The notes under the pieces: generated by a model
Told to the model about the DNA's origin: nothing
What the model saw: only the letters and a program-made list of their open reading frames with translations
Database searches by the model: none
DNA from: Parcubacteria group bacterium
GTDB taxonomy: Bacteria > Patescibacteriota > Minisyncoccia > Moranbacterales > UBA2206
Length of the DNA: 64,000 nt
NCBI GenBank assembly: GCA_041661275.1
Contig: JBAZUU010000002.1
Coordinates: forward strand, 137,148 to 201,147
Direction: 5' to 3'
Shown here: positions 19,603 through 42,649 of the stretch, in pieces
Numbering within the stretch: the stretch's first letter is position 1
Layout of the letters: the number at the start of each line of letters is the position of its first letter
Position numbers and translations under genes: made by a program

Positions 19603-20528
19603 GTAAAAAAGCAATAAAAATAATTCTAAAAATAACTGTCAGTCTTTTTTTTGTGATTCTCGTTGTCTACAAAACCAATTGGCCGGAGGTGCTTTTTTAT
19701 CTCAAAAAAATACAACTCTGGCAGATCTTTCTTTATATTTTAGTTTACGTTATTAGCATCGCTATCTCATCATATAAGTGGAAAATACTTTCCGAATTTA
19801 AAAATATCAGACATTCTTTCAACACTTATTTTAAGCTCTATCTGACCGGAACATTTATCAATAATTTCATGCCGTCTTTTGTGGCAGGGGATGCCTATAA
19901 AGCCTATGAAATTGCGAAACCCCATAATCGTTATATGGAAGCGTCATCCACTGTTATCATGGACAGAATAACCGGACTCATCGGCGCGATGGTTCTGGCT
20001 CTGGTTTTTTCGGCCATAAATTACAAAACGCTCCTGGCCAATGACCTTTTGATGTTTATCGATGCCCTGATTGTCCTTTCTCTTTGTACGGATGTAATTA
20101 TCGCCAAGTTGAAAACAATTCCGGCTATGCGAAATTTTGTGATGCGGATCTTACCGGAAAAAGCGGTTGATTTTTTGCAGCAAATATACAACTATAGCAA
20201 CAACACTGCCATAATAAAAAAGGCCGTCCTTTGGGGGATGGCGTTCTCTATTATCGGAGTGGCGTTTTTGAATTACATTCTTTTTTGGGGACTGGGAATC
20301 GACGTCAATTTTTTTGATTACATGTCGGTCATTTTTATTATCAGTATTGTTTCCGCTCTGCCCATTACGGTCAATAATATCGGACTCAAGGAATGGGCAT
20401 ATATCACCTTTTTTGGAATTTTTGGTATCAGCTCCGGCGCGGTGGTAGCCATTTCGGTCATTAGTCGTTTTTTGCAGATGGCGATCAGTTTCACGGCATT
20501 ACCGGCATATTTACGGAGTCGAAAATAA
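19599..20528 (+). CDS. Flippase-like / lysylphosphatidylglycerol-synthase-TM-like (UPF0104) membrane protein
   Basis: About eight TM helices; FMPSFVAGDAYKAYE segment typical of the family; 4-nt overlap with the upstream GT4. Confidence 0.65.
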   Translation: MSKKAIKIILKITVSLFFVILVVYKTNWPEVLFYLKKIQLWQIFLYILVYVISIAISSYKWKILSEFKNIRHSFNTYFKLYLTGTFINNFMPSFVAGDAYKAYEIAKPHNRYMEASSTVIMDRITGLIGAMVLALVFSAINYKTLLANDLLMFIDALIVLSLCTDVIIAKLKTIPAMRNFVMRILPEKAVDFLQQIYNYSNNTAIIKKAVLWGMAFSIIGVAFLNYILFWGLGIDVNFFDYMSVIFIISIVSALPITVNNIGLKEWAYITFFGIFGISSGAVVAISVISRFLQMAISFTALPAYLRSRK

Positions 20529-22292
20529 TTTATTCCAGGTAAGAAGTTGTGAGATTTGAAATTCCTCGATGGGAATTTTTTTATCTTCCGGGTCTTGTCT
20601 TTGGGCGGTGATGATTTCATTTTTCGGTTTCAGATAAAAAGCAGTCAGGATGCCAAAATTCTTTTCTTGAATTATATCGTAAGTCGCAAGTATACTGCTA
20701 AGGCCTTTTTTGCCATTTAGGACGGATTCTTGTTCTATGTAAAAATAATTTCCCTGGTCATAAGCTTTGTCGGCGGAAAAGATGTCATAATAATCAATAC
20801 CTCTTTTTTCCAGATAATACCAATAAACCGGCTCATACTCATGGGTTGTCCTTATGCATATCGGATAACCGTTTGCTTTGTATTTTGATTCGATATAGTC
20901 GACGATAGGCAATTGCTGGCTCAGGGTGACGCGGGTATTGTCCGGAAAAATGTCTTCCGTTTGAGCTCTGAATGTTTCGTTTTGAGCTCGGGAAAGTTGG
21001 TTAAAACTGTCTTTTATTCTCGATATGTTGGAATAAGACAAGACTGCGACAATAATGACGGGAATGACAAAGGTTAATTTTTTTCGGGGAAAATACAATT
21101 TTTCCAGCAAGAAACCGAAAAAGATTATGGCCAGAGGCGCGACCGGCAGGAAAAAACGCGGGTAGACATAGAGTCCGTCATAAAGAACCAGAAAGTAACA
21201 GGCGAATGAAAAAATTATCCACAGAAGGATAAGTAGGAGGAGATCTCTGCGTCTCTGGTCGCGTTCTGTTTTTAGGTTAAGTAACAGGATAAAAAAAGAA
21301 GCAATGAAAAGGACAAAGGGCAAAAAAGTTACAGCTAACTTTTTCTGGCAGGATTTGCACAAAATCCCCCAGGAACTTCCGGTGAGATGCGAGCCGTTTA
21401 TGTTGTCAATGCCGCTGTTGATCAAAAAATAGTTACCGACATTATAGCGAATATCCTGGACAACTTTTTCCCATGATTTTTTGTCTTTTGATTCTGTTTT
21501 TTCCGTTTCATTGCCGGAATGGAAGGGCAGTCTTTCCAAAAAATAGCTCAAATTTTGTCCTCCGGTTTTTACATCGCTGATGACGACAGGAGAATAAACC
21601 GCTAAAAATATTGCTATCGCCGCAAGCCATATTTTCCACCGGAAACGCGGGCGCTTGATAAGGAGGAAGAAAAAAGTGACAGCGGGGACTATAAAAAAGG
21701 CGTTAAAATGAATTTGTGAAGTAAGGGCGACAAAAAAAGCGGCCAAAAGAAACCAATATTCTTTTTTTTCTTCTTTTTCCGAAACGCTTTTCAAAAGCGC
21801 GTAAAAGCAAAAAAGAACCAAAAAAGGCAGAACATCGGGACTCCAGGAAAAGCGGGAATATAAAACGAGGTACGAGGAAAAAGAAAAGATGGCCAAAAGC
21901 GCCAGAGATAAATTTTTCGAAAAATATCTCCGGCAGAAAAAATAAAAAAGTGGCATGGCCAGAATTCCCAAAATCAACACTTGGGCGGCGTGCCCGGCCG
22001 GAGTGTTGCCAAAAATGAGGGCGCTCAAATATTCCATATAGTAGAAAGCCGGACCGAGGCGCAAGGATCTTCCGCCGCCGGCTGTTGGTCCCAAAAGCGG
22101 CAAATTTCCCGGACCGTTTTGGACGGCATTGGAAACGATATTGATGTCATAAGTCTGATCAATCTCAAAATGGAGCCAGTCACTGAAATGGTATGAACGC
22201 AAAAAAATCCCTGTTAAAAAAATAACAAGGAAGATGGCCAATGTCAGTTTGTTTTGTTTGGCTTTTTCAAATGAAGATCGAAAAAATTTCAT
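20511..22292 (-). CDS. GT-C fold glycosyltransferase, PMT/ArnT-like (GT39/GT83-type), paralog 1
   Basis: N-terminal block IFLRSYHFSDWLHFEIDQ..NLPLLGP..LRLGPAFYY shared with three paralogs; polytopic. Confidence 0.8.
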   Translation of the reverse strand: MKFFRSSFEKAKQNKLTLAIFLVIFLTGIFLRSYHFSDWLHFEIDQTYDINIVSNAVQNGPGNLPLLGPTAGGGRSLRLGPAFYYMEYLSALIFGNTPAGHAAQVLILGILAMPLFYFFCRRYFSKNLSLALLAIFSFSSYLVLYSRFSWSPDVLPFLVLFCFYALLKSVSEKEEKKEYWFLLAAFFVALTSQIHFNAFFIVPAVTFFFLLIKRPRFRWKIWLAAIAIFLAVYSPVVISDVKTGGQNLSYFLERLPFHSGNETEKTESKDKKSWEKVVQDIRYNVGNYFLINSGIDNINGSHLTGSSWGILCKSCQKKLAVTFLPFVLFIASFFILLLNLKTERDQRRRDLLLLILLWIIFSFACYFLVLYDGLYVYPRFFLPVAPLAIIFFGFLLEKLYFPRKKLTFVIPVIIVAVLSYSNISRIKDSFNQLSRAQNETFRAQTEDIFPDNTRVTLSQQLPIVDYIESKYKANGYPICIRTTHEYEPVYWYYLEKRGIDYYDIFSADKAYDQGNYFYIEQESVLNGKKGLSSILATYDIIQEKNFGILTAFYLKPKNEIITAQRQDPEDKKIPIEEFQISQLLTWNKLFSTP

Positions 22293-22999
22293 AGGCGTTC
22301 AAGAGCTTCATATTCAGGGGCTAGTTCCGGGTGGAAGATGACTTCTACTTCAGAGTTATCTTGAGTATTTTGAAGGCAGGAGTCCAGGTTATGACTCCAG
22401 TCAAAACTGATCATATAATCAGAAGTAACTACGGAAGATTTTTTCATCTGTCCAAAATCCAATTTTTTCAACAAATTCAAAATGGCGCAGACCTTATTTT
22501 TATGACTGTATGGTTTTTTTCCGAAACGTATATAGCTTATGCCATATTTTTTAGAGAGCTTCAGAAATCTCCGAAAATAGGGCGGGAAAAAATGGATATG
22601 CTCATGCGAACTGGCGCCGTCAGGAAATTTTCCGAACAGATTTTTAAAATCCATAATTTGCCGTTCCCATTCCTGTTCAACGATGGCCGGACGGTTGTGG
22701 CCGAAAAAGAAGTTGTAGAGAAAAAGAAAGATCCTTTTTATCGCGCCTTTTTCGATAACTCGAGGGTTATTTTGCCAAAAATCAAGCTTGTCCTTGGCCA
22801 AGTGGAAATGGATATCGAGCTTCACGCCTGAGGCGAGAAGGCGTGAGGCGTGCTCCGGTGAGATATTTTTGCTGACCATTATTTCTACCCGATCGAGCTT
22901 TCCGCTTTCTGCCAACGTCAAAATATTGGCATTGGCTCTCTGGCTGATGCCAAAATCATCCGCAGAAACGATTATCATTTTTCCGCCCAGTTTTATCAT
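22289..22999 (-). CDS. ChbG/HpnK (YdjC) family carbohydrate deacetylase
   Basis: MIIVSADDFGISQRANANIL N-terminal signature; His-rich metal site. Confidence 0.7.
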   Translation of the reverse strand: MIKLGGKMIIVSADDFGISQRANANILTLAESGKLDRVEIMVSKNISPEHASRLLASGVKLDIHFHLAKDKLDFWQNNPRVIEKGAIKRIFLFLYNFFFGHNRPAIVEQEWERQIMDFKNLFGKFPDGASSHEHIHFFPPYFRRFLKLSKKYGISYIRFGKKPYSHKNKVCAILNLLKKLDFGQMKKSSVVTSDYMISFDWSHNLDSCLQNTQDNSEVEVIFHPELAPEYEALERL

Positions 23000-23058
23000 A
23001 ATTTAATTGTAATATATAAATCGAAATAAGGAAAATTAAAAATTTTCAATAGTCAGAC

Positions 23059-24735
23059 TTACAAAGAAGCATTACAAGTCTCGTCTTCTCCCGGCTGGCC
23101 CCCGGGATTTTTCGCTTCCGCGTCTATCACCAGAAGATTTCCGGTTTTTTTCTGGTCGCGGATAAAAAATTGCTCCTCAAGATCTTTTGGCATTTTCTGA
23201 TTGACACTCAATCGATAGACCAGAAAATAATCCAGTTTTCCGGAGGGGTGGAAAGCGCTGGTCTTGACGTAGCAGGCGGGGATATTCTCCTGATAACGGA
23301 GAAGATAGAAAATGGCTCGAGCGAAAGAATTGTCAGCCGCGATTCTTACCATATCGTCCGATCGTCTGTGTTTTTTGATGTATTCAACCGTGTTTTCCAG
23401 CTGTTCCAGGGTTATTTTTTTGTCATTAAAAAATTCTCTCCCGACAGTATTTTCCACCTCGCCTTTGGCCATAGCCGTGTGCTCTTTGAAATAAATGGAA
23501 TCACTCCTTAAATTAAATAGCATGACGGCGACGGACAAGAGGATTATGACTATTTTTCCGTGTTTTCCAGCAAAACATTCTATTTTTTTCAAGGTCATTC
23601 CCAAAAAAACAAGAAGAGGAGCTACGGCCGGCAGATAATAGCGCGGGCTCATGTTATAAATAATCGGTATGGAAATTGCAAACATCGATCCCAGCCACAA
23701 CCAAGCCGAGAAAATATATTTTTTTCTGTCCCGGTCGCGCTCGCGGCGAAAAAAATAAAAACTGGACCAGAGGCCAAAAACAAAAAGAAGAGTTTGCAGA
23801 AAAAGAAAGGGCAGGTCTTGCCGACATTGCCGGTCGCAAACCGGAAGAAATTTTTTCGATAGCGCTACCGAGCTTCCGTGCTCGTCAGAAGTTATCATTT
23901 GCCAGCTGATTATCTCCAGTTTTTGGAAAGCATAAAAAGATTTGTCAACTACATTATGTTTGCTTTCGCCCGACATTCCTCTTTCAAAAGTATTTTTGAT
24001 AAGCAGTTTGGTGTTATTGGCGTTATTTTCCATTTCACTGATGATCATAGGTGAATAGACAGCTAAAACAATCAGCAGTCCCGCTATATAATTTTTTATC
24101 TTTAATCTCGGTCTCCAGGCAATGATGTAAATCAATATCAAAACAGGCGCCATAAAAAAATAAACGTAATGAAGCTGGGTGGCGATAGAGGCGCTGAAAA
24201 TTGCCGCATAAAACCAGCCTGGACGGACAGTGTCTTTCCAGTCGGCCTTCAGAAGCCCGAAAAGCGTCAGGAGCGTAAAAAAGGGCAGAGGATTGGGATT
24301 GGAGGCAAACCGTCCATAGATGACCAAAAAAAGCGAAACGGCGGTGATGGCCGAAAGAGCCAAGGAAATATTTTTAGAAAAATAAAGACGCAAAAAATAA
24401 TACAGGAGAGGGACAAAAAGGATAGAAAAGAGCCAGTCAGGCATGGCGAAAATTTCCGGGCGGGTTCCCAGAAAAAAAGCGGGAACGGCCTGGAGATAAT
24501 AGTATGCCGGACCCAATTGCAAAGTACTGCCGCTGGTATGCGGTCCGAGAAGCGGAATTTTCGAGAGTCCATCGCGGACAAAATCACCGACAATAATAGC
24601 GTCTCGGGATTGATCCAAATGAAAGCCTAAAAATGGCACAAAATGATACGACCGCAAAAAAATTGCCAGAAGAACTATAGTTGTCAGGATTAGATATTCA
24701 GTTCTGACGAGTTTTTTGATATTTGCAAATAGCAT
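23059..24735 (-). CDS. GT-C fold glycosyltransferase, PMT/ArnT-like, paralog 2
   Basis: IFLRSYHF..HLDQSRDA..IPLLGP..LQLGPAYYY block; polytopic. Confidence 0.8.
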   Translation of the reverse strand: MLFANIKKLVRTEYLILTTIVLLAIFLRSYHFVPFLGFHLDQSRDAIIVGDFVRDGLSKIPLLGPHTSGSTLQLGPAYYYLQAVPAFFLGTRPEIFAMPDWLFSILFVPLLYYFLRLYFSKNISLALSAITAVSLFLVIYGRFASNPNPLPFFTLLTLFGLLKADWKDTVRPGWFYAAIFSASIATQLHYVYFFMAPVLILIYIIAWRPRLKIKNYIAGLLIVLAVYSPMIISEMENNANNTKLLIKNTFERGMSGESKHNVVDKSFYAFQKLEIISWQMITSDEHGSSVALSKKFLPVCDRQCRQDLPFLFLQTLLFVFGLWSSFYFFRRERDRDRKKYIFSAWLWLGSMFAISIPIIYNMSPRYYLPAVAPLLVFLGMTLKKIECFAGKHGKIVIILLSVAVMLFNLRSDSIYFKEHTAMAKGEVENTVGREFFNDKKITLEQLENTVEYIKKHRRSDDMVRIAADNSFARAIFYLLRYQENIPACYVKTSAFHPSGKLDYFLVYRLSVNQKMPKDLEEQFFIRDQKKTGNLLVIDAEAKNPGGQPGEDETCNASL

Positions 24736-24737
24736 TT

Positions 24738-25523
24738 CTAATTCAAGATTAGATTCATAAAATATTTTGGATACGCGTCTCCGGAAACGGAAGGCAGGAT
24801 GTAATAATGCACCCCATTATACTCTTTGTCCCAAAGCCGGCTGTGGAGATGTCCCATAAAAACATATTTTACGTTGCCGGAGGAAGAAATGACTTTTTCC
24901 ACTTCGGTATATTGCGGAAGAAGCGTATTTTCATCGCGACTGGGAGAAAAGAAGGGAACGTGAGTGGCAATCAGTACTTTTTTGTTTGTTTTTAATGCCT
25001 CTTTGAGCCAGCTGAGTTCGCCTTGATCAATATCAATATCATGATCCAACATTATGATTCGCCAGCCGGCATTATTGTAGTCATGATAATAATAAGCTTG
25101 ACTGGAAAATGCCGGGAAACAATCCTTGTCGTGATTACCCTTTCCCCACAGGACGTTAAATTTGGATAAAAGAGTTTTCAAGTTGTCGGCGTATGGTTGG
25201 CATTTGGCATTATCATTGACATTATCCCCTAAAGTTATTATCAAATCCGGTCTTGAATCCAGGAGTGGTTTCAGGTTATTTTTGTATGCGCCGGGATGAA
25301 CCACGGCATCCTCATTGCTGATTTCATTATGTCCGTTTTTTCCCGATCCGGCATGAATGTCGGTAACAATATCCACATTGAGTGTTTTTTTATTTTCAAT
25401 ATTGGGCTTTGCCAGCCAAATCAATTCATAATACAAAAAACTGACAGCTACCAACAAAACAGCGGAAATAATTATTCTTTCCTTCTTTTTTGAAAGAATG
25501 ATAAATTTCAACTTTTTAATCAT
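24738..25523 (-). CDS. Membrane-anchored calcineurin-like metallophosphoesterase
   Basis: VTDIHAG, GDNVND, GNHD and GHLH motifs; N-terminal TM helix. Confidence 0.8.
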   Translation of the reverse strand: MIKKLKFIILSKKKERIIISAVLLVAVSFLYYELIWLAKPNIENKKTLNVDIVTDIHAGSGKNGHNEISNEDAVVHPGAYKNNLKPLLDSRPDLIITLGDNVNDNAKCQPYADNLKTLLSKFNVLWGKGNHDKDCFPAFSSQAYYYHDYNNAGWRIIMLDHDIDIDQGELSWLKEALKTNKKVLIATHVPFFSPSRDENTLLPQYTEVEKVISSSGNVKYVFMGHLHSRLWDKEYNGVHYYILPSVSGDAYPKYFMNLILN

Positions 25524-25535: not shown

Positions 25536-27170
25536 TTAATTTTTTAGGATTAGGACGGTTAGTCCGGTAAATTTTTTTCCAGTGATTATTTCGCGATCCC
25601 AGACTTTTTGGCCGACCGGAATTTCGCCCGACTCATTTTCCCTGAGGTAAAAAACCGGACTTTCCGGAGGAACTTCATCCAGACCGTCATATTTTAGAAG
25701 GTCGGTTCCGATGCCGCGTTTTTTGGTAAAATAATTGACCGGACGGAAAAATCTTTCAGCGAGGCCATTTTGGCCGCCAAGATATGCTTTTGGGAATATG
25801 CCGGACATATTGGCCAATTCATATTGATAGATATGTTCTACTTCAGAAAGGGTGCTATTTTTGGAATTATTTTCCAATCCGGCCATATAGTTTTGAGCTG
25901 TTTTTGCGTCTCTGGCAAGACAAAGGATAATAAGAGTGACAACGACGGCCGCGGCCAAACCTTTTCCCCATAGACCGAATATTTTTTCCGTCTCCAAAAT
26001 TACAAGTCCCAAAAGCACCAGAGGAACCATATAGAGATTGATAAAATAACCGACAAATATAATCTTAGCGATAGGAATCAGTATCACGAAAGATAGGAAA
26101 TTAAAAAGAATAATGATTCCCAAAAAGCGCTTTTTTTTGATTTCTTTTTCCCGAAAAAAATATCTGAATAACAAATAATAGCCGATGACGGAGAAAATGA
26201 CGCTTAAGGTTATGCCGAAATAATATTTATAATTTTCCGCGCTTGTGCCTTGCGGGTCACGAAAAATAATATTGCACGGGTCGTCCGAACTAAAAGCGGA
26301 GATAGTGTGCGAATTGGCCTGGATCTGGCAGGCAAAGATGTGAAAAGTGTCCCTCCCGAGATGGCTGCCGGAACCGGAGCTGGAAGTGAAGCCTTTTAAA
26401 AAATATTGCGTGTTTTTCCAATGGGAATCAAATTCTGACATTATCTGCGTAGTGTTGAGGACGAGAGTGGCGGCCAGAATAACCAGGGAAATCTTCCAGA
26501 TGTCGGGCGTTTTTTTCCGCCAAAGATAGAAAAAAATCACCAAAGACATCGGCGGCAAAACGATGAGCAAGGTAGTATGAAGCTGGACGCAAATCCCCGT
26601 GCCGATTCCGATCAAGATGCCCCAAAAGTAGGCCATTTTTCCGCTTGAATCCATCAATTTTAGCAGAGAATATAAATAGACAAGAATAAAAAAAGGAATA
26701 AGGTTGGGATTAGATGAGAAGCGAGCGTTTATTATCATAAAATAAGAAACACTCATAATGGCAGTGAGCGCAAGTGACACATTTTTTCCAAAATACTCTC
26801 GCAAAAAGAAAAAGAGAAGCGGGATGGCCAGGATAGAAAAAAAGACGCTCGGGTAGGCCATCTTGTCCGGATAATTGCCGAATATTTCTTCTGATATATA
26901 GGAAAACTGATAATATACCGGGCCGAGCCTGAATCTGGTGACGCCGGCATTGGGTCCCAGGTACGGCAAATGGTCATTCTTGTTTTCCAGGGCATTGCTG
27001 ATGAGTGACGCGTCTCTCACTTGATCGCGGCTGAACCGCAACCAGTCGTGGAAGTTATAAGTTCTGAGAAATATTCCTGCCAGAACGATAAGAGACAAAA
27101 TGATGACGGTTTTTTTGTTTTTTTTTAATGTGTCATAAAAGATATGCATTGTTTTGTTTTGAAATACCAT
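25536..27170 (-). CDS. GT-C fold glycosyltransferase, PMT/ArnT-like, paralog 3
   Basis: IFLRTYNFHDWLRFSRDQVRDA..LPYLGP..FRLGPVYYQ block. Confidence 0.8.
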   Translation of the reverse strand: MVFQNKTMHIFYDTLKKNKKTVIILSLIVLAGIFLRTYNFHDWLRFSRDQVRDASLISNALENKNDHLPYLGPNAGVTRFRLGPVYYQFSYISEEIFGNYPDKMAYPSVFFSILAIPLLFFFLREYFGKNVSLALTAIMSVSYFMIINARFSSNPNLIPFFILVYLYSLLKLMDSSGKMAYFWGILIGIGTGICVQLHTTLLIVLPPMSLVIFFYLWRKKTPDIWKISLVILAATLVLNTTQIMSEFDSHWKNTQYFLKGFTSSSGSGSHLGRDTFHIFACQIQANSHTISAFSSDDPCNIIFRDPQGTSAENYKYYFGITLSVIFSVIGYYLLFRYFFREKEIKKKRFLGIIILFNFLSFVILIPIAKIIFVGYFINLYMVPLVLLGLVILETEKIFGLWGKGLAAAVVVTLIILCLARDAKTAQNYMAGLENNSKNSTLSEVEHIYQYELANMSGIFPKAYLGGQNGLAERFFRPVNYFTKKRGIGTDLLKYDGLDEVPPESPVFYLRENESGEIPVGQKVWDREIITGKKFTGLTVLILKN

Positions 27171-29519
27171 TTAATTTTGCAATATTTTCTCACTGGAAAC
27201 AATTTTTACGAAATTATTCGGCCGGCCTCCGATTTCCAACTTATAATCATAAGAGTCTTGCGAATAAATATTATTCACTGCTTCTGACATTTTGTCTCCG
27301 GAAACTATCTTTCCGGCAGTCATTTTTGACGTTCTTGATTCCCGTCCCGAAGAGACGACGAAGAAGTCTATTTTTTCCGGCTGGCTGAAATCAAACCCGC
27401 TCGTGCAAGCTCCCGCGAAAAAAGAGCAAACACCTTTCTTGTCGGTCCATACGACCAAATTTTTTGCATCAGGCAATTTATTGAGATAATCAGCCGCTTC
27501 ATAGCTTCCGTCTCCCATATCTTTCAAATTCAAGACATATTGATTGGGCAGGAAGTCTGACGCGTAGCTGAAATAGAACGGTCTGATCGAATTAAGACTA
27601 TATATACTGATAATAAGAACGCCCAAATAGACAAAGCCGGGAATGAGGTATTTTTTGATCTGCTCGATGTTTATGAATTGGCTGATTCCGATGGCCGAAA
27701 GAATCATGGCCAAAGGATAAAGAATAATCTGGTATCTGACGGTAGCGCTTACGCCTTCGACCGTTGAAGCCAGATAATAAAAAAGGATAAAAAGTGTGAT
27801 ATAGGTGAACCAGATGGTTGCTTCTTTATTTTTTTTCCCGGGAAAAATATTGGACAGGCTGGAAAAAAACATTGCCAAAAAAGCGAGAGGCGTGAGGCCA
27901 AAAACCAGAGAATAGAAATTGGCCAGCATAAGACCTAAAAATCCTCCAAAATCTTTGGAAGATTTGGGAGAGGCCAGGATTGATTCCAAATCATAAAACT
28001 TCATTCCCGAATAAGTATTGATGATGGTCAGAATAATCAGGGCGGCGAATGACAGATTGAAAATTATGATAAACACCAGTCTGTATCTGGACAAAAAATC
28101 AGTGGCGGTTGATATAAATTTATTTTTGAAAATGAATATGTGCGCCATTATCAAACCGATGATTCCGAGGAAGGCCGGCCAAATAGAAATAAAAGCTTTG
28201 GACATAATGGTTCCTTCCAGGACCCTATTGATATCGACCCAGGCGGCCGGAAGAAGCAGAAAAAAAGTCATGAGAGATAAAAAGATCAGTATAAAATAGT
28301 CGGCAAAAGCTTTTTTAAAATAATTCGCGGCGCTTGAATTTTCGTATTTTGACCGGTTTATGACGTATTCAAGAAAAATAAGCCCGAAGAAGAAAACATA
28401 CATAATATTGGCCACGTATTTCGTGAGGACGGCCAGCCCTAAAAATATTCCCGTGAGATACAAATATCTATTTTCTTGATCTTTAAGATAGGCCAGATAG
28501 GCAAGAAGAGATAGCGGGGCGAATATCCAAAGAAGGCTGTCCGGATTGACGATGGTGGAAATGCCCAAAAGCAGGGGGGAAAGCCCGATCAAAACAAGAG
28601 AAACGAGCGCGACGGTTTTTCCCAGCAATTTTTTAATAAAGGAATAAAAAACCAAAAGCATCAGGCAATTGAAAAGAAGGATGGGAAACCGCAGATCAAA
28701 ATTAAGATTTCCTATGCCTATATATTCTCTCAGGGAATCTTCATTCCAACTTGCGCTTTTATAATATACCGGACTTATCCAATGCATGCCGACTCCTGAA
28801 ATTATGGCGGTGGTTATGCCCGGTTTGTCGCTGACCATAGTTTTCCAGAATTCTCCGTCGGCCACATTAGTCCAAAATTTAGGGATGCGGTCATGAGTCC
28901 AAAGCGGCTCATCAACAGCGGCAAATTCGGCCAAATGATAGCTTCCGAATCCCAAATTGACGATTATCACAGAAAGTATTATCAGTGTAGTCAGAGTTTT
29001 CCTCTTTTTGAGCCAAAGCGACATTTTTTCAAAAAAAGAAGGGCTTTTGGGCGCGGGCAGTTCTTTTCCGTTTTTTTCTTTTCCAAAATCTCTGAAAAAG
29101 TCTCCCGGTTTTTTATATTTTTTATATTTGAATAAAAAGTAAAAGCAAACCAATATGAGATATAGCCCTATAAAAGGGCGAAGTGTGTAGGTGAAAACGC
29201 TTTTGTCATAGCCAATCTTGTTGAAAACATATCCATAAAAAAGAACCAGCTCCATAGGAAGAAGAGTCAAAAATATTCTTTTTAGTAGGTAACTTGAACC
29301 GATCGGATTTCTAAGGATATAAACCAAAATGGCCATGGAACCAAAGATAGCGAAAAAATATATATAGCCGATTTTTCCTACACCTATCACTTGAAAAAAG
29401 TTGGCGCGATGAAGCTTTAGATACATATAGAGGAAAGTGTTTGCGGCAAAAACGAGAGAGATGAAAATCAGCAAGCAATTTTCCAGATTGAAGAATTTTT
29501 TAATCTTCGAATAATCCAT
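27171..29519 (-). CDS. Large polytopic membrane protein, GT-C-like (putative carrier-dependent glycosyltransferase)
   Basis: 782 aa, more than 12 TM helices, AVDEPLW acidic motif in the first periplasmic loop; no other family match. Confidence 0.55.
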   Translation of the reverse strand: MDYSKIKKFFNLENCLLIFISLVFAANTFLYMYLKLHRANFFQVIGVGKIGYIYFFAIFGSMAILVYILRNPIGSSYLLKRIFLTLLPMELVLFYGYVFNKIGYDKSVFTYTLRPFIGLYLILVCFYFLFKYKKYKKPGDFFRDFGKEKNGKELPAPKSPSFFEKMSLWLKKRKTLTTLIILSVIIVNLGFGSYHLAEFAAVDEPLWTHDRIPKFWTNVADGEFWKTMVSDKPGITTAIISGVGMHWISPVYYKSASWNEDSLREYIGIGNLNFDLRFPILLFNCLMLLVFYSFIKKLLGKTVALVSLVLIGLSPLLLGISTIVNPDSLLWIFAPLSLLAYLAYLKDQENRYLYLTGIFLGLAVLTKYVANIMYVFFFGLIFLEYVINRSKYENSSAANYFKKAFADYFILIFLSLMTFFLLLPAAWVDINRVLEGTIMSKAFISIWPAFLGIIGLIMAHIFIFKNKFISTATDFLSRYRLVFIIIFNLSFAALIILTIINTYSGMKFYDLESILASPKSSKDFGGFLGLMLANFYSLVFGLTPLAFLAMFFSSLSNIFPGKKNKEATIWFTYITLFILFYYLASTVEGVSATVRYQIILYPLAMILSAIGISQFINIEQIKKYLIPGFVYLGVLIISIYSLNSIRPFYFSYASDFLPNQYVLNLKDMGDGSYEAADYLNKLPDAKNLVVWTDKKGVCSFFAGACTSGFDFSQPEKIDFFVVSSGRESRTSKMTAGKIVSGDKMSEAVNNIYSQDSYDYKLEIGGRPNNFVKIVSSEKILQN

Positions 29520-29611
29520 AGTTTTAGTCCATTACGTTTAGTTATTGCTAAAATACTCAAAATACCCTAAAATTTAAAATAGCCTACAGAATATATTGTA
29601 CAGGCAAACTT

Positions 29612-34291: not shown

Positions 34292-34295
34292 TTAT

Positions 34296-35054
34296 ATGAA
34301 AATATCCTTTGTCATTCCGGCCTGGAATGAAGAAAAATATATAGCCCAATCTCTTGAATCGATAATAGAGCGGGCAAAATATACATCGCATGAGGTGGAG
34401 ATTATTGCTGTCAACAATGCCAGCGTGGATAAGACTCGAGATATAATCCTTCAGTATTCCGAGGTGATATTGGTAGATGAACCCAAAAAAGGCTTGCCGC
34501 AAGCCAGGCAGGCCGGGTTTTTGGCGTCTACTGGCGATATTATCGCCAATATGGATGCCGATTCAATTCTGCCTCCGAAATGGATCGGAAGAGCGGTATA
34601 TGAATTTTCGAAAGATGAAAAGCTGGTGGCACTTTCGGGGCCTTATAGATTTTATGATATGCCGGGAATTATTAATTTTTCGGCCAACATTTTTTATTTC
34701 CCTGGATATCTCATTCATCTTTTCAATCACCATATTCTAGGCAAAGGCGCTATGCTTCAAGGAGGGAACTTTGTGCTCAGACGCTCGGCACTGGAGTCAA
34801 TCGGCGGATTTGATGTCAATATAAAATTTTATGGGGAAGATACGGATATTGCCCGGCGTATTTCCAAAGCGGGAAAGGTTAAATTTTCTCACAATTTTAT
34901 CATGACTACTTCCGGAAGACGGCTAAAAAAAGAAGGATTGTTTACTACGTTGGGAAGATATGTCATCAATCATTTGTGGATACTGCTATTCAAAAAGCCT
35001 CTCACAAAAAACTATGCCTATGTAGGCGATGAAAAAGCGGAGAATAGAAAATAA
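34296..35054 (+). CDS. GT2 glycosyltransferase
   Basis: ISFVIPAWNEE ... MDADS (DxD). Confidence 0.85.
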   Translation: MKISFVIPAWNEEKYIAQSLESIIERAKYTSHEVEIIAVNNASVDKTRDIILQYSEVILVDEPKKGLPQARQAGFLASTGDIIANMDADSILPPKWIGRAVYEFSKDEKLVALSGPYRFYDMPGIINFSANIFYFPGYLIHLFNHHILGKGAMLQGGNFVLRRSALESIGGFDVNIKFYGEDTDIARRISKAGKVKFSHNFIMTTSGRRLKKEGLFTTLGRYVINHLWILLFKKPLTKNYAYVGDEKAENRK

Positions 35055-35062: not shown

Positions 35063-36595
35063 CTAGGCCGCCGGTTCATTACCGGAAAATTCTTCTTCGA
35101 TTTCTTCTGTTTTTTTACGGCTGACAAGTTTTTGGATGACAGCGATGTCATCCTTTTTGATTTCTTTCAAAAGATAAAGGATGAAAAGATATAGAGCGAA
35201 TAATATCGCTGACCAGAGGATAAAAATGAGCTCGCCGCGATTGAAAAGAAATGACGCGGCGTACATGATGGCGCCGGCAGCCGCCATTTTCAGAAAGCTT
35301 TTTATTTTTATCGTGACACCAAAATCCTTCCAAATATAGTAGAGCATAATAAAAGTGATAAATGCGGAAGTGATGGAGGTGGCGATGGCGGAACCGGTAA
35401 TGCCGTAACGTTTGATGAATATATAATTTAAGATCGTGTTTATAACAAGGCCAACGGATGACAAAACCATGGGAATTTTTACTTTTCCTGCGCCGCTCAT
35501 GACAAAACAGAAGACATAATAGATGGTCAAGAATCCGACGCCCCAGACCAAAATAGACATAGGGGTTGCCGCATCGATATAGATGTGGCTATAAAATAAT
35601 CTGATCAAGGGTCTTGCGAAGACACTCATTAGAATTACCGAGGGAATCAGAAGCATCAGCATCAATCTTAGGGATTGCTCAATAATTTTGGAGGTTTCTT
35701 TGTGGTTGTTTTCTGATGTTGTTTTGGAAACAACAGGAAGAAGAACCACGGTGAGAGCGTAGAAAATATAATAGGGGATGCGGCCGATAGTGAGTGAAGC
35801 ATTATATATTCCTGTTAGATAGTCATCGCGCAGGATTCCTTTAACTAAATACAGATCGATACTGATAAGAAGTTCATAGGCTAAAAAGAATATGACAATC
35901 TGCCAGGCGTAGTTAACTAGTTTTCGCCAGTCAAATGTCGGCTCCGGTAGAGATGCAAAATTTTGCGTCTCTACGTTTGCCTGTAATTTTTTTGAGATTT
36001 TAAATTTATCAATGCCGACAGCGACAAGGAAGACCAAAAAAGCAGCGGCGGAATACCCCATTACTGATCCGGGAACGCGGAAAAAATATGCCAGGCCGAT
36101 TATGGTAATAATTTTAAAGATAGAGCGTAGTGTTTTCAGGACGGACTGGATATTGAACTCGTGAAGTCCGGTGTAATAGGAGAAATAGAACGAAGCGGCG
36201 GCAAAGGCCGGAATGATAAGTGAGGAGAGCTGGAATAGGGGAGTGAGCGTTGGATCGTTCAAAATTCTGGCGATGAGCGGCGCGGACAGGAAAAAGATGA
36301 CAGTTATTGCGCCGATGACGATGCTTTGAAGAATAATAGCTTGCCTTTTAATGACGCCAACCAATCTTGGATTACATTCAAAACATTCACTCAAATATTT
36401 ACTCATGGCGGTCGGAATGCCATTGCCAATCAGGATGATGACCATTGTTGTCATGGTGATAACGAGGCCATACCGTCCATAATCAGAGGGACCCAACATC
36501 CGTCCGACGACAGAGTGGATAACAAAACCGGAGACATTGAAAATTATCTCCGAAACCGTAACCCAGAATGTTGATTTAGCGAGACTAGGCGACAT
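35063..36595 (-). CDS. Polysaccharide/oligosaccharide flippase (MOP superfamily, Wzx-like)
   Basis: 510 aa, ~14 TM helices, characteristic N-terminal half. Confidence 0.75.
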   Translation of the reverse strand: MSPSLAKSTFWVTVSEIIFNVSGFVIHSVVGRMLGPSDYGRYGLVITMTTMVIILIGNGIPTAMSKYLSECFECNPRLVGVIKRQAIILQSIVIGAITVIFFLSAPLIARILNDPTLTPLFQLSSLIIPAFAAASFYFSYYTGLHEFNIQSVLKTLRSIFKIITIIGLAYFFRVPGSVMGYSAAAFLVFLVAVGIDKFKISKKLQANVETQNFASLPEPTFDWRKLVNYAWQIVIFFLAYELLISIDLYLVKGILRDDYLTGIYNASLTIGRIPYYIFYALTVVLLPVVSKTTSENNHKETSKIIEQSLRLMLMLLIPSVILMSVFARPLIRLFYSHIYIDAATPMSILVWGVGFLTIYYVFCFVMSGAGKVKIPMVLSSVGLVINTILNYIFIKRYGITGSAIATSITSAFITFIMLYYIWKDFGVTIKIKSFLKMAAAGAIMYAASFLFNRGELIFILWSAILFALYLFILYLLKEIKKDDIAVIQKLVSRKKTEEIEEEFSGNEPAA

Positions 36596-37340: not shown

Positions 37341-37348
37341 TTTAAATC

Positions 37349-38866: not shown

Positions 38867-38872
38867 TCCCGC

Positions 38873-38935
38873 GAAAGCGGGAATCTAGTGTATAAATTTA
38901 ATTTTTAAGATTGGATCCCGGGTCAAGCCCGGGAT
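38873..38935. repeat. Pair of GC-rich perfect hairpins in inverted orientation (GTCATTCCCGC-GAAA-GCGGGAATC and GGATCCCGGG-TCAAG-CCCGGGATGAC)
   Basis: Both begin with GTCATYCC, like the TIRs of MITE family 1. They lie between two minus-strand genes. Confidence 0.5.
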
Positions 38936-38940
38936 GACAT

Positions 38941-40107
38941 CTAAAGTTTGTCATAAATCTTTCTATAAATCTCCGCAATATTTTTTATATCAAAATTTTC
39001 TTCCGCAAATTTTCTAGCCTCTTTTCCGATACTTGTGCATTTTTCGCTATTCTCATATAGATCCAGTATTGCTTGATAGAGAGCATCGACATCGTCCTGT
39101 GGGATTATAACAGAGTTATGCTCATTGGTCAGTTCCTTGAGGATCGGCAGATCGGAAATAATCACTGGTTTTTCACAGGCCATAGCTTCTGGAACGAATA
39201 GGGGAATGTCGAACTTTCCTTTCATATTTTTTACTGGAAAAAGAACAGCATCGCAAGTATTATTTACCTTGCTCATCCAATCCGGTCCGCGTGACTGAAG
39301 ACTGGCCTGGGCTTCAATTTCATCGGAATATCTGACGATATCTTCAGCTCCAGCTTCTTTTATTATTTTCTTGACCTCGGCTTTTTTCTCAAAATCTTTT
39401 TCGTCTTTCATCCTTCCGGGAAAACAAATAATGATCTTTCTTTTTCTTAGTTCCGTAGAGAATTTTGTTATCAGGGAAACGATATTATCCATTGCTCCCA
39501 GACGGGCATACTCTCCGCCGATGTATTGGAAGACAAAATCATCATCGCTTATGTTGAACAGTTTTTGTATCTCTCTATCTTTAGGTGTTTTTTTATACAG
39601 ATCAAGATCAATTCCTGGGTAAACTCGTTTGATGTTATTAAAGCCGATAGCATTAAGTTTATTCTTAGCATAGTCAGAGTAGGTGATGATAAGATCAGCG
39701 AAAAGAATATCTTTAAAATCTTTGTCTTTGAATAAATCCTCTCGCAATGTCGCGATAGTTTGAATAGTGCGAGCCCTCTTTTTGTTTATAAAAGTCTTAA
39801 ATGAAAAAGCATTGAGCTTGGTCGGGGTAAGCATATAATGAATAACATCAAAATCTTCCCGAAGAATATGACGCAATTTTAATAATCTTATTCGCTGCAT
39901 GTATGTCAACTTGTTAGAGGTGTAAATAGCTTTTTGATGGATGTGTGGCGGGAGATCAGGGAGAAAACCGTTAGTCAGAAGATAGAAATCGTGCATATCG
40001 AGCGTTTTAGCCAGATAATACGCAAAATTCTTGGAAGCTTCATCCCAAGGCGGAGCGATCGGACGTGTGACCAGTAATATTTTTTTTCTTGGATTTTCTT
40101 CGGTCAT
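38941..40107 (-). CDS. GT4 glycosyltransferase
   Basis: C-terminal EAMACEKPVIISD block (E-x7-E). Confidence 0.8.
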   Translation of the reverse strand: MTEENPRKKILLVTRPIAPPWDEASKNFAYYLAKTLDMHDFYLLTNGFLPDLPPHIHQKAIYTSNKLTYMQRIRLLKLRHILREDFDVIHYMLTPTKLNAFSFKTFINKKRARTIQTIATLREDLFKDKDFKDILFADLIITYSDYAKNKLNAIGFNNIKRVYPGIDLDLYKKTPKDREIQKLFNISDDDFVFQYIGGEYARLGAMDNIVSLITKFSTELRKRKIIICFPGRMKDEKDFEKKAEVKKIIKEAGAEDIVRYSDEIEAQASLQSRGPDWMSKVNNTCDAVLFPVKNMKGKFDIPLFVPEAMACEKPVIISDLPILKELTNEHNSVIIPQDDVDALYQAILDLYENSEKCTSIGKEARKFAEENFDIKNIAEIYRKIYDKL

Positions 40108-40282
40108 ATTTTGGCTTTATTGAGCCAATAGTTTGATTTTAGGCAATCAGCTATTGACAAATTTATAAAATAGGAGTACAATGTATGCAATTATTATTCG
40201 GGTCGTTTGTGGAAGCGTTCGAAAGATGGAGTGACGATTCTCCTCCTATAAACTTTCGAAACACACAACCGGCCCATTTTTT

Positions 40283-40654
40283 TTAAAAATTCTTATAAAT
40301 CTCTTTTTTCTCATCACCAGTTGAAACTTCAATGGTGATTTTTTTGTTTTCTAAATTCCTAGAGTTCAACTCTTGGAAATTCCTAGAGCTAAACTCTAGG
40401 AGGCCATCTTTTCTAATATTTTCATCAGCTTCTTTTATTCTTTCTTTGTCAATTAAAATTACATAATGAAAATTAGTTTTGCCACTGTGATTTTCTATGA
40501 CAAAATTCAAGCTATTATCCTTGGGACTGACAAAATAAATAGACCACCAGTTTTTGCCAAAATTTAAAGTTTCAAATTTTGAGCCTACAGAAAGAAGATA
40601 AGCAGAGCTTAGGATGAATAACGCAACTATAAATATTATTAATTTTTTTTGCAT
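40283..40654 (-). CDS. Small exported/membrane-anchored protein, hypothetical
   Basis: N-terminal signal anchor; internal direct DNA repeats (TTCCTAGAG x2). Confidence 0.45.
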   Translation of the reverse strand: MQKKLIIFIVALFILSSAYLLSVGSKFETLNFGKNWWSIYFVSPKDNSLNFVIENHSGKTNFHYVILIDKERIKEADENIRKDGLLEFSSRNFQELNSRNLENKKITIEVSTGDEKKEIYKNF

Positions 40655-40657
40655 AAA

Positions 40658-42649
40658 TTATTTCCTATAATACACAGCAATATCGTTACTCATATAAACC
40701 TGATTGAATTCTGGCAGTTTTTGGAATTGGGGAGCGTCATACATTGGATTAATAACCAAAAAATCAGTTTTAGTGTCTGAAAAACATTGTTTTGCCTCAT
40801 CGGAACCGGGGCTGGAGATCATAACTAGCGTACAAATTTCGCCGCTGCGGCTGCCTTGCGCTTCATAGCGGCTAAAAAATCCACGTGATTGGGGATATTT
40901 ATACCCGCGCATAAAAAACAATTTCATCCAGGAATCGGCAGTGATATAGTTGTGATCTTTGAGGATCTGGTCGTTGGCGTTTGTATTATCGGCCAGATAT
41001 TTTGAAACATCAAAAGTCTGATTGAGTTGGGTGAGTTCCGCTTGTTTTTTGAAAGCTTGGGCGGAGTCATTGAGTCCTGTAACCAAAACAAAAGCTAAAA
41101 GGATGAGAAATGCTGATTTCAGAAGTTTGTCCATCACATACGGTTTTTCGCATAATTTCTTGCCCCAAAGTGTTTCGTATGATTCCGGACGAAAAACAGT
41201 ATAAAAAGCAAAGGCGGAGAGAATGGCCAGGGGATAGCTTAGATAATTTCCAATGCGGCTTGATGGCAAATCAACAAATAGCAAATTAGGAAAAGATGAC
41301 ATAATAAAAAGCATAAAAGTCCAAGAGGCAAGAAGCGCATATCCGAAATTTTTTCTTCGGAAAGTCAAGATCAGTAATAGAAATCCCAAAAATCCAAGTG
41401 CAAGACGCGGCTCACCGACTGTTTGTTTGATGTTGGTGATGGTGAGGCCGACCCGCGTTGATTTTGTGGCTGCTCCGACAGCGGTGTCAACGGCTTTAGT
41501 GTTGACATAAGTCGGAGTAAAGACAAAAAAGAAAAATATGAGGCCAAGGACAAAAATTCCCAAAACTTGCGGCGAAAAAATAATTTTAGCGGATTTTTTG
41601 AGAACAACTTCTACGTCTTTATAGTTAACGATCAAAAATAGGGGAATGAGCAAGAGGAATATGAACAAAAATATAAAAGACGTGAGGTGGTGGGTGTAGA
41701 AAAGGCCAAAGGTGGTGAAGACGGCGAGGGAAAGGAAAGTCTTACTATTTTTAATAAGAGCCCTCTCCTGTCGCGAAGACGCGACATCCTCTCCCAGAAG
41801 GAGAGGAGGATATTGATTTTTCGAATTAAGAAATTCGAAAGTTCTGTAGTAGAAATAAAATGCCAGTGGCATAAGGAAATTACCGAAAATATTTCCCATG
41901 ACACCACCACTGACATATTTGGCTTGGGGGGATGCGACTGCAAAAAGAACGCCCAAAAAAAGTAATGTTAAAATAGCAATTAATTTATTCTTAAAAATTC
42001 GCAAAGTTAAAATGAAAACAGTCAGGATCCCTAGTAAATTTATTAAGAATAAAACAACAACGGGCCAGCCGGTAAGAAAATTTAATCCGGTCAAAATGTT
42101 AATGCTGGCAAACATGGTGTGTTCGCCAATAATGAAATCAGGCATTCCTTCATAACTGGTCAGTTGATGAGTTTCGGCAATAGTTTTGGCCCAATAGAGA
42201 TGATGGCCAAAATCAGTGGCTGTCGGCGCTATGGCGGTGGAAAGATAGGCAGTCTTAATGAAAATGGTCAGAAATAGCAAAAGTAAAATTAATATAAATT
42301 GGTTTTTGGAGAAAGAAAATAATTTATCTTCGGGCTCGTTTTGGACACGGAGTGTCCAATTGGACACTCCGTGTCCAAGGAATTTATAAATGGAAAAACA
42401 AACCGCTGAAAAAAATAAAACTCCTAAAATTATAGATATTCGTGTAATGCCTATATTTAACTTCGAATAAGTAAAAAGAATAAAATCAACAACAATTATA
42501 CTTAGGCCAAAAGAAATAATAAATCTTTCCAATGTGCTTAGTGCTGCGCTTTTTCTAAACACAGCCAAAAGCAAACAAAATCCCGGCAAAAACATCAAAA
42601 ATCCCACGGCCAGGAAAAATAATATTTGGTTTTGGATAATATTAAGCAT
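40658..42649 (-). CDS. Large polytopic membrane protein, GT-C-like (putative glycosyltransferase); contains in-frame palindromic inserts
   Basis: 663 aa, more than 12 TM helices. Insert-encoded peptide PPLLLGEDVASSRQERAL from the family-2 element (41760-41808). A 38-nt perfect palindrome at 42341-42378 encodes GHGVSNWTLRV. Confidence 0.55.
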   Translation of the reverse strand: MLNIIQNQILFFLAVGFLMFLPGFCLLLAVFRKSAALSTLERFIISFGLSIIVVDFILFTYSKLNIGITRISIILGVLFFSAVCFSIYKFLGHGVSNWTLRVQNEPEDKLFSFSKNQFILILLLLFLTIFIKTAYLSTAIAPTATDFGHHLYWAKTIAETHQLTSYEGMPDFIIGEHTMFASINILTGLNFLTGWPVVVLFLINLLGILTVFILTLRIFKNKLIAILTLLFLGVLFAVASPQAKYVSGGVMGNIFGNFLMPLAFYFYYRTFEFLNSKNQYPPLLLGEDVASSRQERALIKNSKTFLSLAVFTTFGLFYTHHLTSFIFLFIFLLLIPLFLIVNYKDVEVVLKKSAKIIFSPQVLGIFVLGLIFFFFVFTPTYVNTKAVDTAVGAATKSTRVGLTITNIKQTVGEPRLALGFLGFLLLILTFRRKNFGYALLASWTFMLFIMSSFPNLLFVDLPSSRIGNYLSYPLAILSAFAFYTVFRPESYETLWGKKLCEKPYVMDKLLKSAFLILLAFVLVTGLNDSAQAFKKQAELTQLNQTFDVSKYLADNTNANDQILKDHNYITADSWMKLFFMRGYKYPQSRGFFSRYEAQGSRSGEICTLVMISSPGSDEAKQCFSDTKTDFLVINPMYDAPQFQKLPEFNQVYMSNDIAVYYRK
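41760..41808. mobile_element. MITE family 2 (type B) copy inserted in-frame within a CDS
   Basis: CCCTCTCCTGTCGCGAAGACGCGACATCCTCTCCCAGAAGGAGAGGAGG, ~92% identical to the intergenic copy at 62525-62573. Confidence 0.6.
42341..42378. repeat. 38-nt perfect palindrome inside a CDS (TTGGACACGGAGTGTCCAATTGGACACTCCGTGTCCAA)
   Basis: Two self-complementary 15-mers (GGACAC-NNN-GTGTCC) in inverted arrangement around AATT. Confidence 0.6.

Follow-up and report, generated by a model that had tools for sequence, protein, structure and literature searches.

Seven GT-C-fold glycosyltransferases in a conserved Moranbacteria locus with a probable role in cell-envelope glycosylation

Introduction

In multi-component transmembrane glycosylation a GT-A glycosyltransferase makes a C55-P-sugar, which a flippase of the GtrA, Wzx or MATE type carries outward, and transfer of the sugar outside the membrane is then the work of a GT-C glycosyltransferase; GtlB, which is of the PMT_2 type, is an example of such a GT-C, and several GT-A/GT-C pairs can share one flippase (PMC8035078, PMC11127046). 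Gram-positive examples are GtlA/GtcA/GtlB, CsbB/GtcA/YfhO and L. lactis CsdAB/CD/EF with CflA (PMC8035078). Here we describe a 64,000-nucleotide stretch of DNA, hereafter the window (positions 137,148 to 201,147 of contig JBAZUU010000002.1, assembly GCA_041661275.1), from a Parcubacteria group bacterium of the Moranbacterales, which encodes seven polytopic GT-C-fold glycosyltransferases, A to G. We consider it likely that the region is a lineage version of a cell-envelope glycosylation locus that is conserved across Moranbacteria and works by multi-component transmembrane glycosylation.

The window shares with the described systems predicted membrane-linked GT-A enzymes and polytopic GT-Cs with a (modified) DxD-type motif, and it encodes candidates for the flippase; Wzx/Wzy/LCP polymer genes are adjacent, and A to E are of the PMT_2 type, as is GtlB. 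The part of the membrane-linked GT-A would be played by two GT2 proteins (3-770 and 43796-44779) predicted to be ArnC/DPMS/AglJ-like, each with two C-terminal transmembrane (TM) helices. However, the window differs from those systems in having seven GT-Cs and two GT-As instead of pairs, in having no GtrA-type flippase, and in that four of its GT-Cs belong to a backbone conserved across a lineage of the candidate phyla radiation (CPR). A search for literature on CPR bacteria, Patescibacteria or Moranbacteria together with GT39, PMT, ArnT or GT-C found nothing specific.

Results and Discussion

Seven GT-C proteins in one window

The seven open reading frames (ORFs) of the original prediction were all recovered, at exactly the same coordinates: A (20511-22292), B (23059-24735), C (25536-27170), E (27171-29519) and G (40658-42649) on the minus strand, with D (29612-31402) and F (31416-32948) on the plus strand. 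An independent gene caller had called these genes identically on identical contigs of other samples; protein D is 100% identical to an NCBI entry and is also found on contigs from three independent samples, where the gene order is unchanged. Moreover, six of the seven proteins, F among them, are already named "glycosyltransferase family 39" at NCBI.

Proteins A to E all exceed the gathering threshold of the Pfam family PMT_2 (PF13231, 26.1 bits). The backbone proteins D (596 aa) and E (782 aa) score 51.6 and 57.6 bits, whilst among the accessory proteins A (593 aa), which is a member of the D family and 42% identical to D, scores 44.3 bits, B (558 aa) 35.7 bits and C (544 aa) 34.2 bits. The threshold of the Pfam family PMT (PF02366) is passed within the set only by B (32.4 bits), D and E (42.9 bits). 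In E some 170 additional N-terminal residues, with about four predicted TM helices, come before the PMT/PMT_2 core. The homology among A, B, C and D is far above chance, with pairwise BLASTP E-values of 1e-45 to 2e-142 at 29-42% identity. The N-terminal block that had been quoted as common to these four is present with small deviations only, namely FLRA in D, YNF and YYQ in C, D-I for D-A in A, and IP and LQLGP in B. Residues D42, Q43, D46, P62, L64, G65, P66, L75, G76, P77 and Y80 (D numbering) are invariant in 40 members of the family. The N-terminal 260 alignment columns of A to D are 36-55% identical and the remainder 13-35%. Judged from their sequences, the four proteins may combine a shared donor or catalytic N-terminal module with divergent acceptor-facing parts, which would fit different acceptors or linkages.

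A simple hydropathy scan predicts 8-14 TM helices in each of A to G. In the families of D, E, F and G an invariant acidic motif lies about 10 residues past a predicted TM helix, presumably on the outer face of the membrane; the E family here includes E′, a paralogue of E described below. The motif in this first loop is DE in E and F, an invariant DQ in A to D, and D-F-G-H-H in G. Across 99 E and E′ sequences D203, E204, W207 and R211 are invariant.

No PMT_4TMC or MIR domain was matched in Pfam at E ≤ 0.01 in any of A to G. NCBIfam returned sub-threshold matches only for A to E and none for F and G: the best score was 41.8 bits for Agl23 (TIGR03663, cut-off 126) and 34.1 bits for LA_3751/LA_3752 (cut-off 200), and the ArnT equivalog NF009784 was matched by D alone, at 17.7 bits against a cut-off of 567. 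The sequences of F, G and E and two profiles of the D family (4 and 40 sequences), searched against all PDB chains, found no GT-C and gave noise at E > 0.1, and none of A to G matched the solved ArnT, PMT (Pmt1, Pmt2, Pmt4) or PglB at the sequence level. Since these PDB searches gave noise only, the proteins cannot be placed by their sequences with respect to ArnT, PMT or AglB. The designation "PMT/ArnT-like" thus holds at the level of the PMT_2 superfamily and not below it, as no paralogue reaches the NCBIfam ArnT cut-off or matches a solved ArnT, PMT or PglB.

Proteins F and G were assigned by predicted structure. F (510 aa) is a divergent PMT_2-like backbone GT-C with an ADEFLD motif and has no Pfam match; some of its orthologues hold a precomputed PF13231 match, and a profile-profile comparison (hhalign) of the F and D families gave a probability of 96.8%. 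Its AlphaFold (AF2) model has a mean predicted local distance difference test score (pLDDT) of 88 and a predicted template modelling score (pTM) of 0.88. When this model was compared with the PDB, its 26 matches at E ≤ 0.001 were without exception GT-Cs, as were the 33 best matches overall, including STT3, AglB, ArnT, PglB, AftA, DPY19, ALG9/12 and Pmt4, with query-normalised TM-scores of up to 0.60. D35, E36 and D39 are invariant among 56 sequences of the F family.

G (663 aa) is a backbone GT-C of the DUF1616/DUF6541 type, with three additional TM helices N-terminal to its GT-C module. It has no GT-C match in Pfam, where its only match is to DUF1616, at the N-terminus, and comparison of the G and D families by hhalign was not significant (3% probability). 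DUF1616 is matched by 56 of 57 aligned family members, G included, and DUF6541 by 41 of the 57, G itself not being one of them. The AF2 model of G (pLDDT 82, pTM 0.88) gave 13 matches at E ≤ 0.001, all of them GT-Cs, as were the top 15 overall (DPY19, STT3, AftA, PglB, AftD). The helical bundles of both models agree with the TM helices predicted from hydropathy. D146, G148, H149 and H150 are invariant among 57 sequences of the G family. This family is small and confined to the lineage, a search of 1.84 billion representatives giving 113 clusters at E ≤ 1e-30 and 734 at E ≤ 1e-3. Neither Pfam nor the literature that we found gives a function for DUF1616, which appears in the latter only as a Haloferax glycoprotein substrate; these uncharacterised families, DUF1616 and DUF6541, are here assigned to the GT-C fold by structure prediction. 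Directly downstream of G, on the same strand, lies a gene for a small anchored protein of 123 aa (40283-40654) with one N-terminal TM helix and no Pfam or other family match. In related loci it adjoins G wherever the flank reaches (e.g. L011:18916-19269), and it may be an accessory subunit of G. The claim of seven GT-C membrane glycosyltransferases is confirmed, for A to E by PMT_2 and for F and G by the AlphaFold models.

A backbone conserved across Moranbacteria

The great majority of the homologues of D, F and G at 50-80% identity belong to metagenome-assembled genomes (MAGs) of Candidatus Moranbacteria/Moraniibacteriota. A pattern scan of GTDB species representatives gave 80 species-level loci, whose ORFs were compared with the window genes by BLAST. 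These loci share a backbone. Its first half consists of an ArnC-like GT2, a UDP-glucose dehydrogenase, a GT4 and a flippase-like gene in the forward direction, a variable slot, E′ and E in reverse, and then D and F forward again. After F comes a second variable slot, followed in reverse by a MOP flippase, Tmk, RtcB, a GT4, the small protein, G and a further GT4. E, D, F and G are thus backbone genes, E being syntenic in most loci. E′, a PMT/PMT_2 paralogue of E of about 620 aa, is found in most loci and not in the window, where the genes for C, a metallophosphoesterase, B, a YdjC-family protein and A occupy the slot. A typical Moranbacteria locus holds five GT-Cs (E′, E, D, F and G) and the window seven. 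In the 37 full-length loci, taking 10 kb on each side of D, we counted 1-6 GT-C-like ORFs, with a mode of 4. Accessory D-like paralogues number none in 60 of the 80 loci, one in 14 and two in 6, and three both in the window and in its two close relatives, L084 and L085. Genomes thus differ in what the slot from the flippase-like gene to E contains. Many GTDB MAG records, L004, L006, L007 and L010 among them, are titled "uncultured Bdellovibrionales bacterium" yet clearly carry the Moranbacteria locus, an evident mislabelling.

Within the window the minus-strand block from E through C, the metallophosphoesterase, B and YdjC to A is tightly packed, with intergenic gaps of -4 to 60 bp. A plus-strand block of D, F, DedA and two GT2 genes, GT2a and GT2b, diverges from it across a 92-bp gap between E and D (29520-29611) that has promoter-like sites on both strands. 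Upstream, the plus strand carries the ArnC-like GT2 (truncated by the window start), the UDP-glucose dehydrogenase, an insertion, a GT4 and the LPG_synthase_TM protein. A second minus-strand run holds a nucleotide-sugar dehydrogenase, an ArnC-like GT2, a GT4, G, the 123-aa protein, a GT4, RtcB, Tmk and the MOP flippase, and GT4, Wzy_C, GT4, LCP ligase and GT2 genes lie downstream. The window, of about 39% G+C, is bacterial, with genes for LexA, an LCP ligase, CTP synthase and ribosomal protein L9; neither a tRNA nor an Rfam element was found in its 64 kb.

Accessory paralogues are old and stable

The original prediction had described the GT-C genes as an expansion and had suggested that diversification of the paralogues may underlie surface variation. 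The comparison of loci tells against the term expansion, since E, D, F and G stand in a gene order common to 80 loci, which usually hold a fifth GT-C, E′, that is missing here. For the accessory genes we built a neighbour-joining tree with Poisson correction and 100 bootstraps. The D clade unites 81 sequences from all 80 loci (bootstrap 85). The A clade, consisting of A from the window with sequences from L008, L018 and L020 (bootstrap 100), is its sister (bootstrap 90), the C clade comprises 12 sequences from 11 loci (bootstrap 84), and the B clade holds 5 sequences (bootstrap 64). A, B and C therefore each group with orthologues from other genomes. No two paralogues of the window are nearest neighbours in the tree, which indicates that the duplications are old.

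Moreover, L084 and L085, whose D proteins are 75% identical to that of the window, keep the order A, YdjC, extra metallophosphoesterase, B, metallophosphoesterase, C, E, D, F, which is the window order plus one gene. Orthologue identities in the two relatives are 78% and 53% for A, 60% and 61% for B, and 76% and 72% for C, compared with 67% and 64% for E, 74% and 75% for D, and 72% and 66% for F. Thus the accessory orthologues (53-78%) diverge no faster than backbone genes (57-75%), at ordinary rates. Within this sub-lineage the A-B-C set is stable and is neither a recent expansion nor one that turns over quickly; the proposed surface variation and turnover of paralogues found no support in comparative genomics. 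The extra metallophosphoesterase lies between YdjC and B (L084:2589-3425, L085:2634-3494). At this position the window has only a 60-bp gap (22999-23059), which points to a recent loss in the window lineage or a gain in the relatives.

Genes for donor synthesis, flipping and polymer assembly

The GT-Cs were said to be interleaved with GT2 and GT4 enzymes, flippases, DedA, an O-antigen ligase, YdjC and a phosphoesterase. This is borne out for all except the ligase, which is real (Wzy_C, 47626-49260) and lies outside the claimed range.

Two candidate polyprenyl-phosphate sugar synthases are encoded. The ArnC/GtrB-type membrane-linked GT2 at 3-770 (plus strand) lacks its N-terminal third, which falls before the window start. 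What remains matches the ArnC model, of 316 positions, from 97 to 313 (5e-29) and ends in two C-terminal TM helices. Orthologues are present in 24 loci, with 72-79% identity for the best six listed, and the gene is the best-conserved of the locus. The second, at 43796-44779 (minus strand), is ArnC/DPMS/AglJ/PpgS-like, also with two C-terminal TM helices; it aligns over its full length to the solved ArnC (9hwj, 5e-9) and to the Pyrococcus dolichol-P-mannose synthase (5mlz, 1e-7), and matches the NCBIfam models AglJ (108 bits) and PpgS (58 bits) as well as the ArnC model. Two dehydrogenases are also present. The backbone UDP-glucose 6-dehydrogenase (1252-2559, plus strand; TuaD/AglM-like) reaches 565 bits with NCBIfam TuaD, has the N, central and C domains of Pfam UDPG_MGDP_dh, and is represented by orthologues in 31 loci, with 49-76% identity for the best six listed. 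The other is a nucleotide-sugar dehydrogenase (45098-46378, minus strand; TIGR03026, 411 bits) that is UDP-ManNAc dehydrogenase-like and scores 248-325 bits with the corresponding models, under their cut-offs. GT2a and GT2b (33566-35054, plus strand; 241 and 252 aa), which belong to a lineage-specific insert and match Pfam Glycos_transf_2, were rejected as clear donor synthases, being soluble proteins without TM helices that match generic GT2 models only.

There are two flippase candidates. The backbone LPG_synthase_TM/flippase-like protein with 7 TM helices (19599-20528, plus strand; PF03706, 1e-31) scores 70 bits with the TIGR00374 flippase-like domain, above the cut-off, and is a candidate flippase for lipid-linked sugars; in related loci its gene always follows the GT4. 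The backbone MOP-superfamily flippase (35063-36595, minus strand; Wzx/MurJ/SpoVB/MATE-like) matches Pfam Polysacc_synt, MatE and MurJ, its NCBIfam matches are all under cut-off, and the gene is kept in most loci. Two other ORFs were considered as GtrA-type flippases and rejected, the 123-aa protein for its single TM helix and ORF 800-1198 because it is a GxxExxY PD-(D/E)XK protein. The latter, a member of this nuclease family, lies between the ArnC-like GT2 and the UDP-glucose dehydrogenase and has no counterpart in the 80 related loci.

Three GT4 genes belong to the backbone: the cytoplasmic GT4 at 18436-19602 (plus strand; Pfam Glycos_transf_1, 8e-46), which keeps its position in most of the 80 loci, and those at 38941-40107 (minus strand; Glycos_transf_1), which is syntenic, and 42642-43760 (minus strand; Glycos_transf_1, 1.4e-29), syntenic where the flank reaches. 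The accessory genes include a YdjC-family carbohydrate deacetylase (22289-22999, minus strand; Pfam YdjC, 1e-26), a lineage-specific cytoplasmic protein without a TM helix that is missing from the 80 GTDB loci and present in L084 and L085. The accessory metallophosphoesterase (24738-25523, minus strand; Pfam Metallophos, 1.7e-12) is anchored by one N-terminal TM helix and is probably extracytoplasmic; across loci its presence shows a weak association with that of accessory D-like paralogues (odds ratio 4.7, p=0.024). A DedA/UptA-like protein (32958-33569, plus strand; Pfam VTT_dom, 1.5e-13; NCBIfam UptA 66 bits, under the cut-off of 250) forms part of the lineage-specific insert and is a candidate transporter for polyprenyl-phosphate recycling. 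Further downstream, conventional glycopolymer genes (46458-53187, plus strand; Pfam, NCBIfam) comprise a GT4, Wzy_C, which is O-antigen ligase/polymerase-like, another GT4 and an LCP ligase (51967-53187), with an unrelated AIR carboxylase gene among them.

Several insertions were observed in and around the locus. The DedA-GT2-GT2 insert (32958-35054) in the variable slot between F and the MOP flippase is missing in L084, L085 and most other loci. Approximately 15.9 kb (2560-18435) is inserted between the UDP-glucose dehydrogenase and the GT4, two genes spaced by 4-1065 bp in the 19 other Moranbacteria loci in which both were identified. Encoded on this insert are a 1421-aa beta-helix/NosD and LCAT-lipase protein, a DUF202 protein and a LexA-like S24 repressor. 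It also holds a type I restriction-modification methyltransferase and S subunit, for which no R subunit is obvious, together with a DpdF/RecQ-like helicase that has HTH_40, and a RhuM/PDC-S05 protein. The insert resembles a defence or mobile island embedded in the conserved glycosylation locus. Another insertion hotspot in the conserved block is seen in L084 (15433-19827), where a phage-type integrase and several small genes lie between Tmk and RtcB. Lastly, a stand-alone PD-(D/E)XK/Cas4-like nuclease (60435-61559; 374 aa, DUF2800 match) has no CRISPR/cas context in the window.

A pathway for envelope glycosylation and its alternatives

The GT-Cs sit among GT2 and GT4 enzymes, flippase candidates, DedA, YdjC and a phosphoesterase, and surface glycosylation with lipid-linked donors is therefore the natural reading. 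This part of the original prediction stands, whilst its other suggestion, protein O-glycosylation, has no specific support. Our view that this is probably a multi-component transmembrane glycosylation locus is founded on the fold or family of each protein, on motifs, on synteny and on the age of the paralogues; from these we infer the donor chemistry, which flippase acts, what the acceptor is and what YdjC and the phosphoesterase do. On the inner face of the membrane the ArnC/DPMS-type GT2s (3-770 and 43796-44779) would charge polyprenyl phosphate with sugars taken from nucleotide sugars, which the two NDP-sugar dehydrogenases would provide in part. A flippase, possibly the LPG_synthase_TM-type protein or the MOP/MATE-like protein, would then move the lipid-linked sugar outward, where the seven GT-Cs would transfer it to acceptors on the outer face by means of the invariant Asp just past a TM helix. 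The free carrier may be returned by DedA/UptA. As guesses, YdjC may remove an N-acetyl group of the donor and the phosphoesterase may take part in phosphodiester processing. A polyprenyl-phosphate-linked donor for the GT-Cs is suggested by context, through the two ArnC/DPMS-like GT2s of the window. As the acceptor, we consider a wall-linked glycopolymer or lipoglycan, assembled by the products of the neighbouring GT4/Wzy_C/LCP genes, more likely than protein. The LCP, Wzy_C and GT4 genes lie close by, whole batteries of GT-Cs are typical of glycopolymer assembly, and features specific to PMT are missing.

Several observations weigh against this assignment. None of these families offers a biochemical precedent, the GT-C activity here being predicted from sequence and fold, and since no solved GT-C matches A to G by sequence, donor and acceptor are not transferable by homology. 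The window holds two GT-A donor synthases for seven GT-Cs, and the D family has DQ where PMT has DE. The window contains no ORF of the GtrA family, leaving the LPG_synthase_TM/TIGR00374 and MOP/MatE proteins as flippase candidates, and no initiating phosphoglycosyltransferase was found in the 64 kb. Moreover, the housekeeping genes Tmk and RtcB lie inside the conserved block, so that part of the locus may be conserved synteny and not one functional unit.

Of the alternatives, protein O-glycosylation would make the GT-Cs Pmt-like enzymes that transfer mannose or another sugar to Ser/Thr of secreted, S-layer or pilus proteins, with the paralogues divided by substrate class. Much of what the locus shares with the GT39 PMTs (Pmt1/2/4 and actinobacterial Pmt) speaks for this: PF02366 is passed by B, D and E and by E′ proteins of other genomes, six of A to G bear the GT39 name at NCBI, E and F have the PMT-like DE motif, and an ArnC/DPMS-like synthase is present, implying a donor of the polyprenyl- or dolichyl-P-mannose type. 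We nevertheless regard it as unlikely. PMT_4TMC and MIR are undetected throughout A to G, the D family has DQ instead of DE, and the solved Pmt1, Pmt2 and Pmt4 are not matched by sequence. The neighbours are LCP, Wzy_C and GT4 polymer genes, and no gene for a Ser/Thr-rich secreted substrate is conspicuous in the cluster. To our knowledge the characterised bacterial Pmt is single-copy, whereas seven enzymes are encoded here. A different comparison is with the Arn pathway (ArnT/ArnC/ArnD/Ugd, GT83), in which case the GT-Cs would add deacetylated amino sugars or uronic acids to lipid head groups, or to a glycolipid produced by the conserved GT4 and flippase-like pair, much as ArnT modifies lipid A. 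The gene set does recall that pathway, with a Ugd-like UDP-glucose dehydrogenase, ArnC-like GT2s ending in two TM helices, a de-N-acylation step in which YdjC would replace ArnD, and PMT_2-type GT-Cs; the GT4 and the MprF-type flippase domain form a conserved pair, and ArnT is among the structural matches of F. However, D reaches just 17.7 bits with the ArnT equivalog (cut-off 567), and ArnA, ArnB and ArnE/F are absent, with no ArnA or ArnB homologue in the window. YdjC is unrelated to ArnD and lineage-specific, and since it is missing from the 80 other loci it is not part of the core mechanism, which further counts against an Arn-like role. So far as we are aware, CPR bacteria have no lipid A. 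We judge lipid modification of this kind to be improbable.

The idea of a recent, lineage-specific expansion that yields variable surface glycans, for antigenic or phage-receptor variation, as the original prediction proposed, is largely refuted and in our opinion very improbable. The slot between the flippase-like gene and E does differ among genomes, with three accessory paralogues here against 0-2 in the 80 loci, and the second slot, from F to the MOP flippase, is also variable. Against this, A, B and C have orthologues in other species (bootstraps 100, 64 and 84) and none are mutually nearest, the gene order is the same, bar one extra metallophosphoesterase, in relatives with D 75% identical, divergence is no faster for the accessory paralogues than for the backbone, and D and the gene order are identical in three independent samples. 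That the polytopic proteins are transporters or permeases can be dismissed almost entirely, being refuted by the family and fold assignments, even though some automatic JGI names of homologues say antiporter or DMT permease. No transporter family is matched above threshold in Pfam or NCBIfam. The fold searches with F and G return transporters only at E > 0.04 with a probability of about 0.3 or less, below all GT-C matches, and for G only at E > 0.1 with low probability. An assignment to unrelated transporter families lacking the acidic loop, which would have undone the GT-C claim, was not obtained, and every family has the invariant Asp motif past a TM helix.

Turning back to envelope glycosylation by lipid-linked donors, a further parallel is the mycobacterial battery of EmbA/B/C, AftA-D, PimE and Rv3779 with PpgS. 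There, too, many GT-Cs work with few polyprenyl-P-sugar donors to build or decorate wall glycans on the outer side of the membrane; the structural matches of F and G include AftA and AftD, and PpgS is matched by the GT2 at 43796-44779. The likeness does not extend to a detectable sequence relationship, and no carbohydrate-binding-module extensions were recognised here. By analogy with mycobacterial arabinan and mannan assembly, we speculate that a lineage-specific envelope glycoconjugate of Moranbacteria might be built largely outside the membrane by five or more distinct GT-Cs (E′, E, D, F and G) acting as a fixed relay. A single, very conserved ArnC-like synthase for a polyprenyl-phosphate-linked (possibly uronic-acid) sugar would feed them, and G with its small anchored partner might be a new, lineage-restricted GT-C family. 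We hold this fuller picture to be doubtful.

Conclusions

The locus is real but fairly ordinary and typical of its lineage; it adds members to a known kind of system and no new mechanism. What is modestly new is the Moranbacteria backbone, the GT-C fold for DUF1616/DUF6541 with a small partner, and an unusual 7:2 ratio of GT-C to GT-A. DUF1616/DUF6541 can be proposed as a GT-C family. CPR bacteria, or Patescibacteria, have very small genomes, and we know of almost no experimental characterisation of their envelope biology. The surface of these episymbionts is their presumed point of contact with the host. A defined and testable gene set is provided by the conserved backbone. That five to seven large GT-C genes and the genes for donor synthesis are kept in one neighbourhood suggests that extracytoplasmic glycosylation is core to the Moranbacteria surface.

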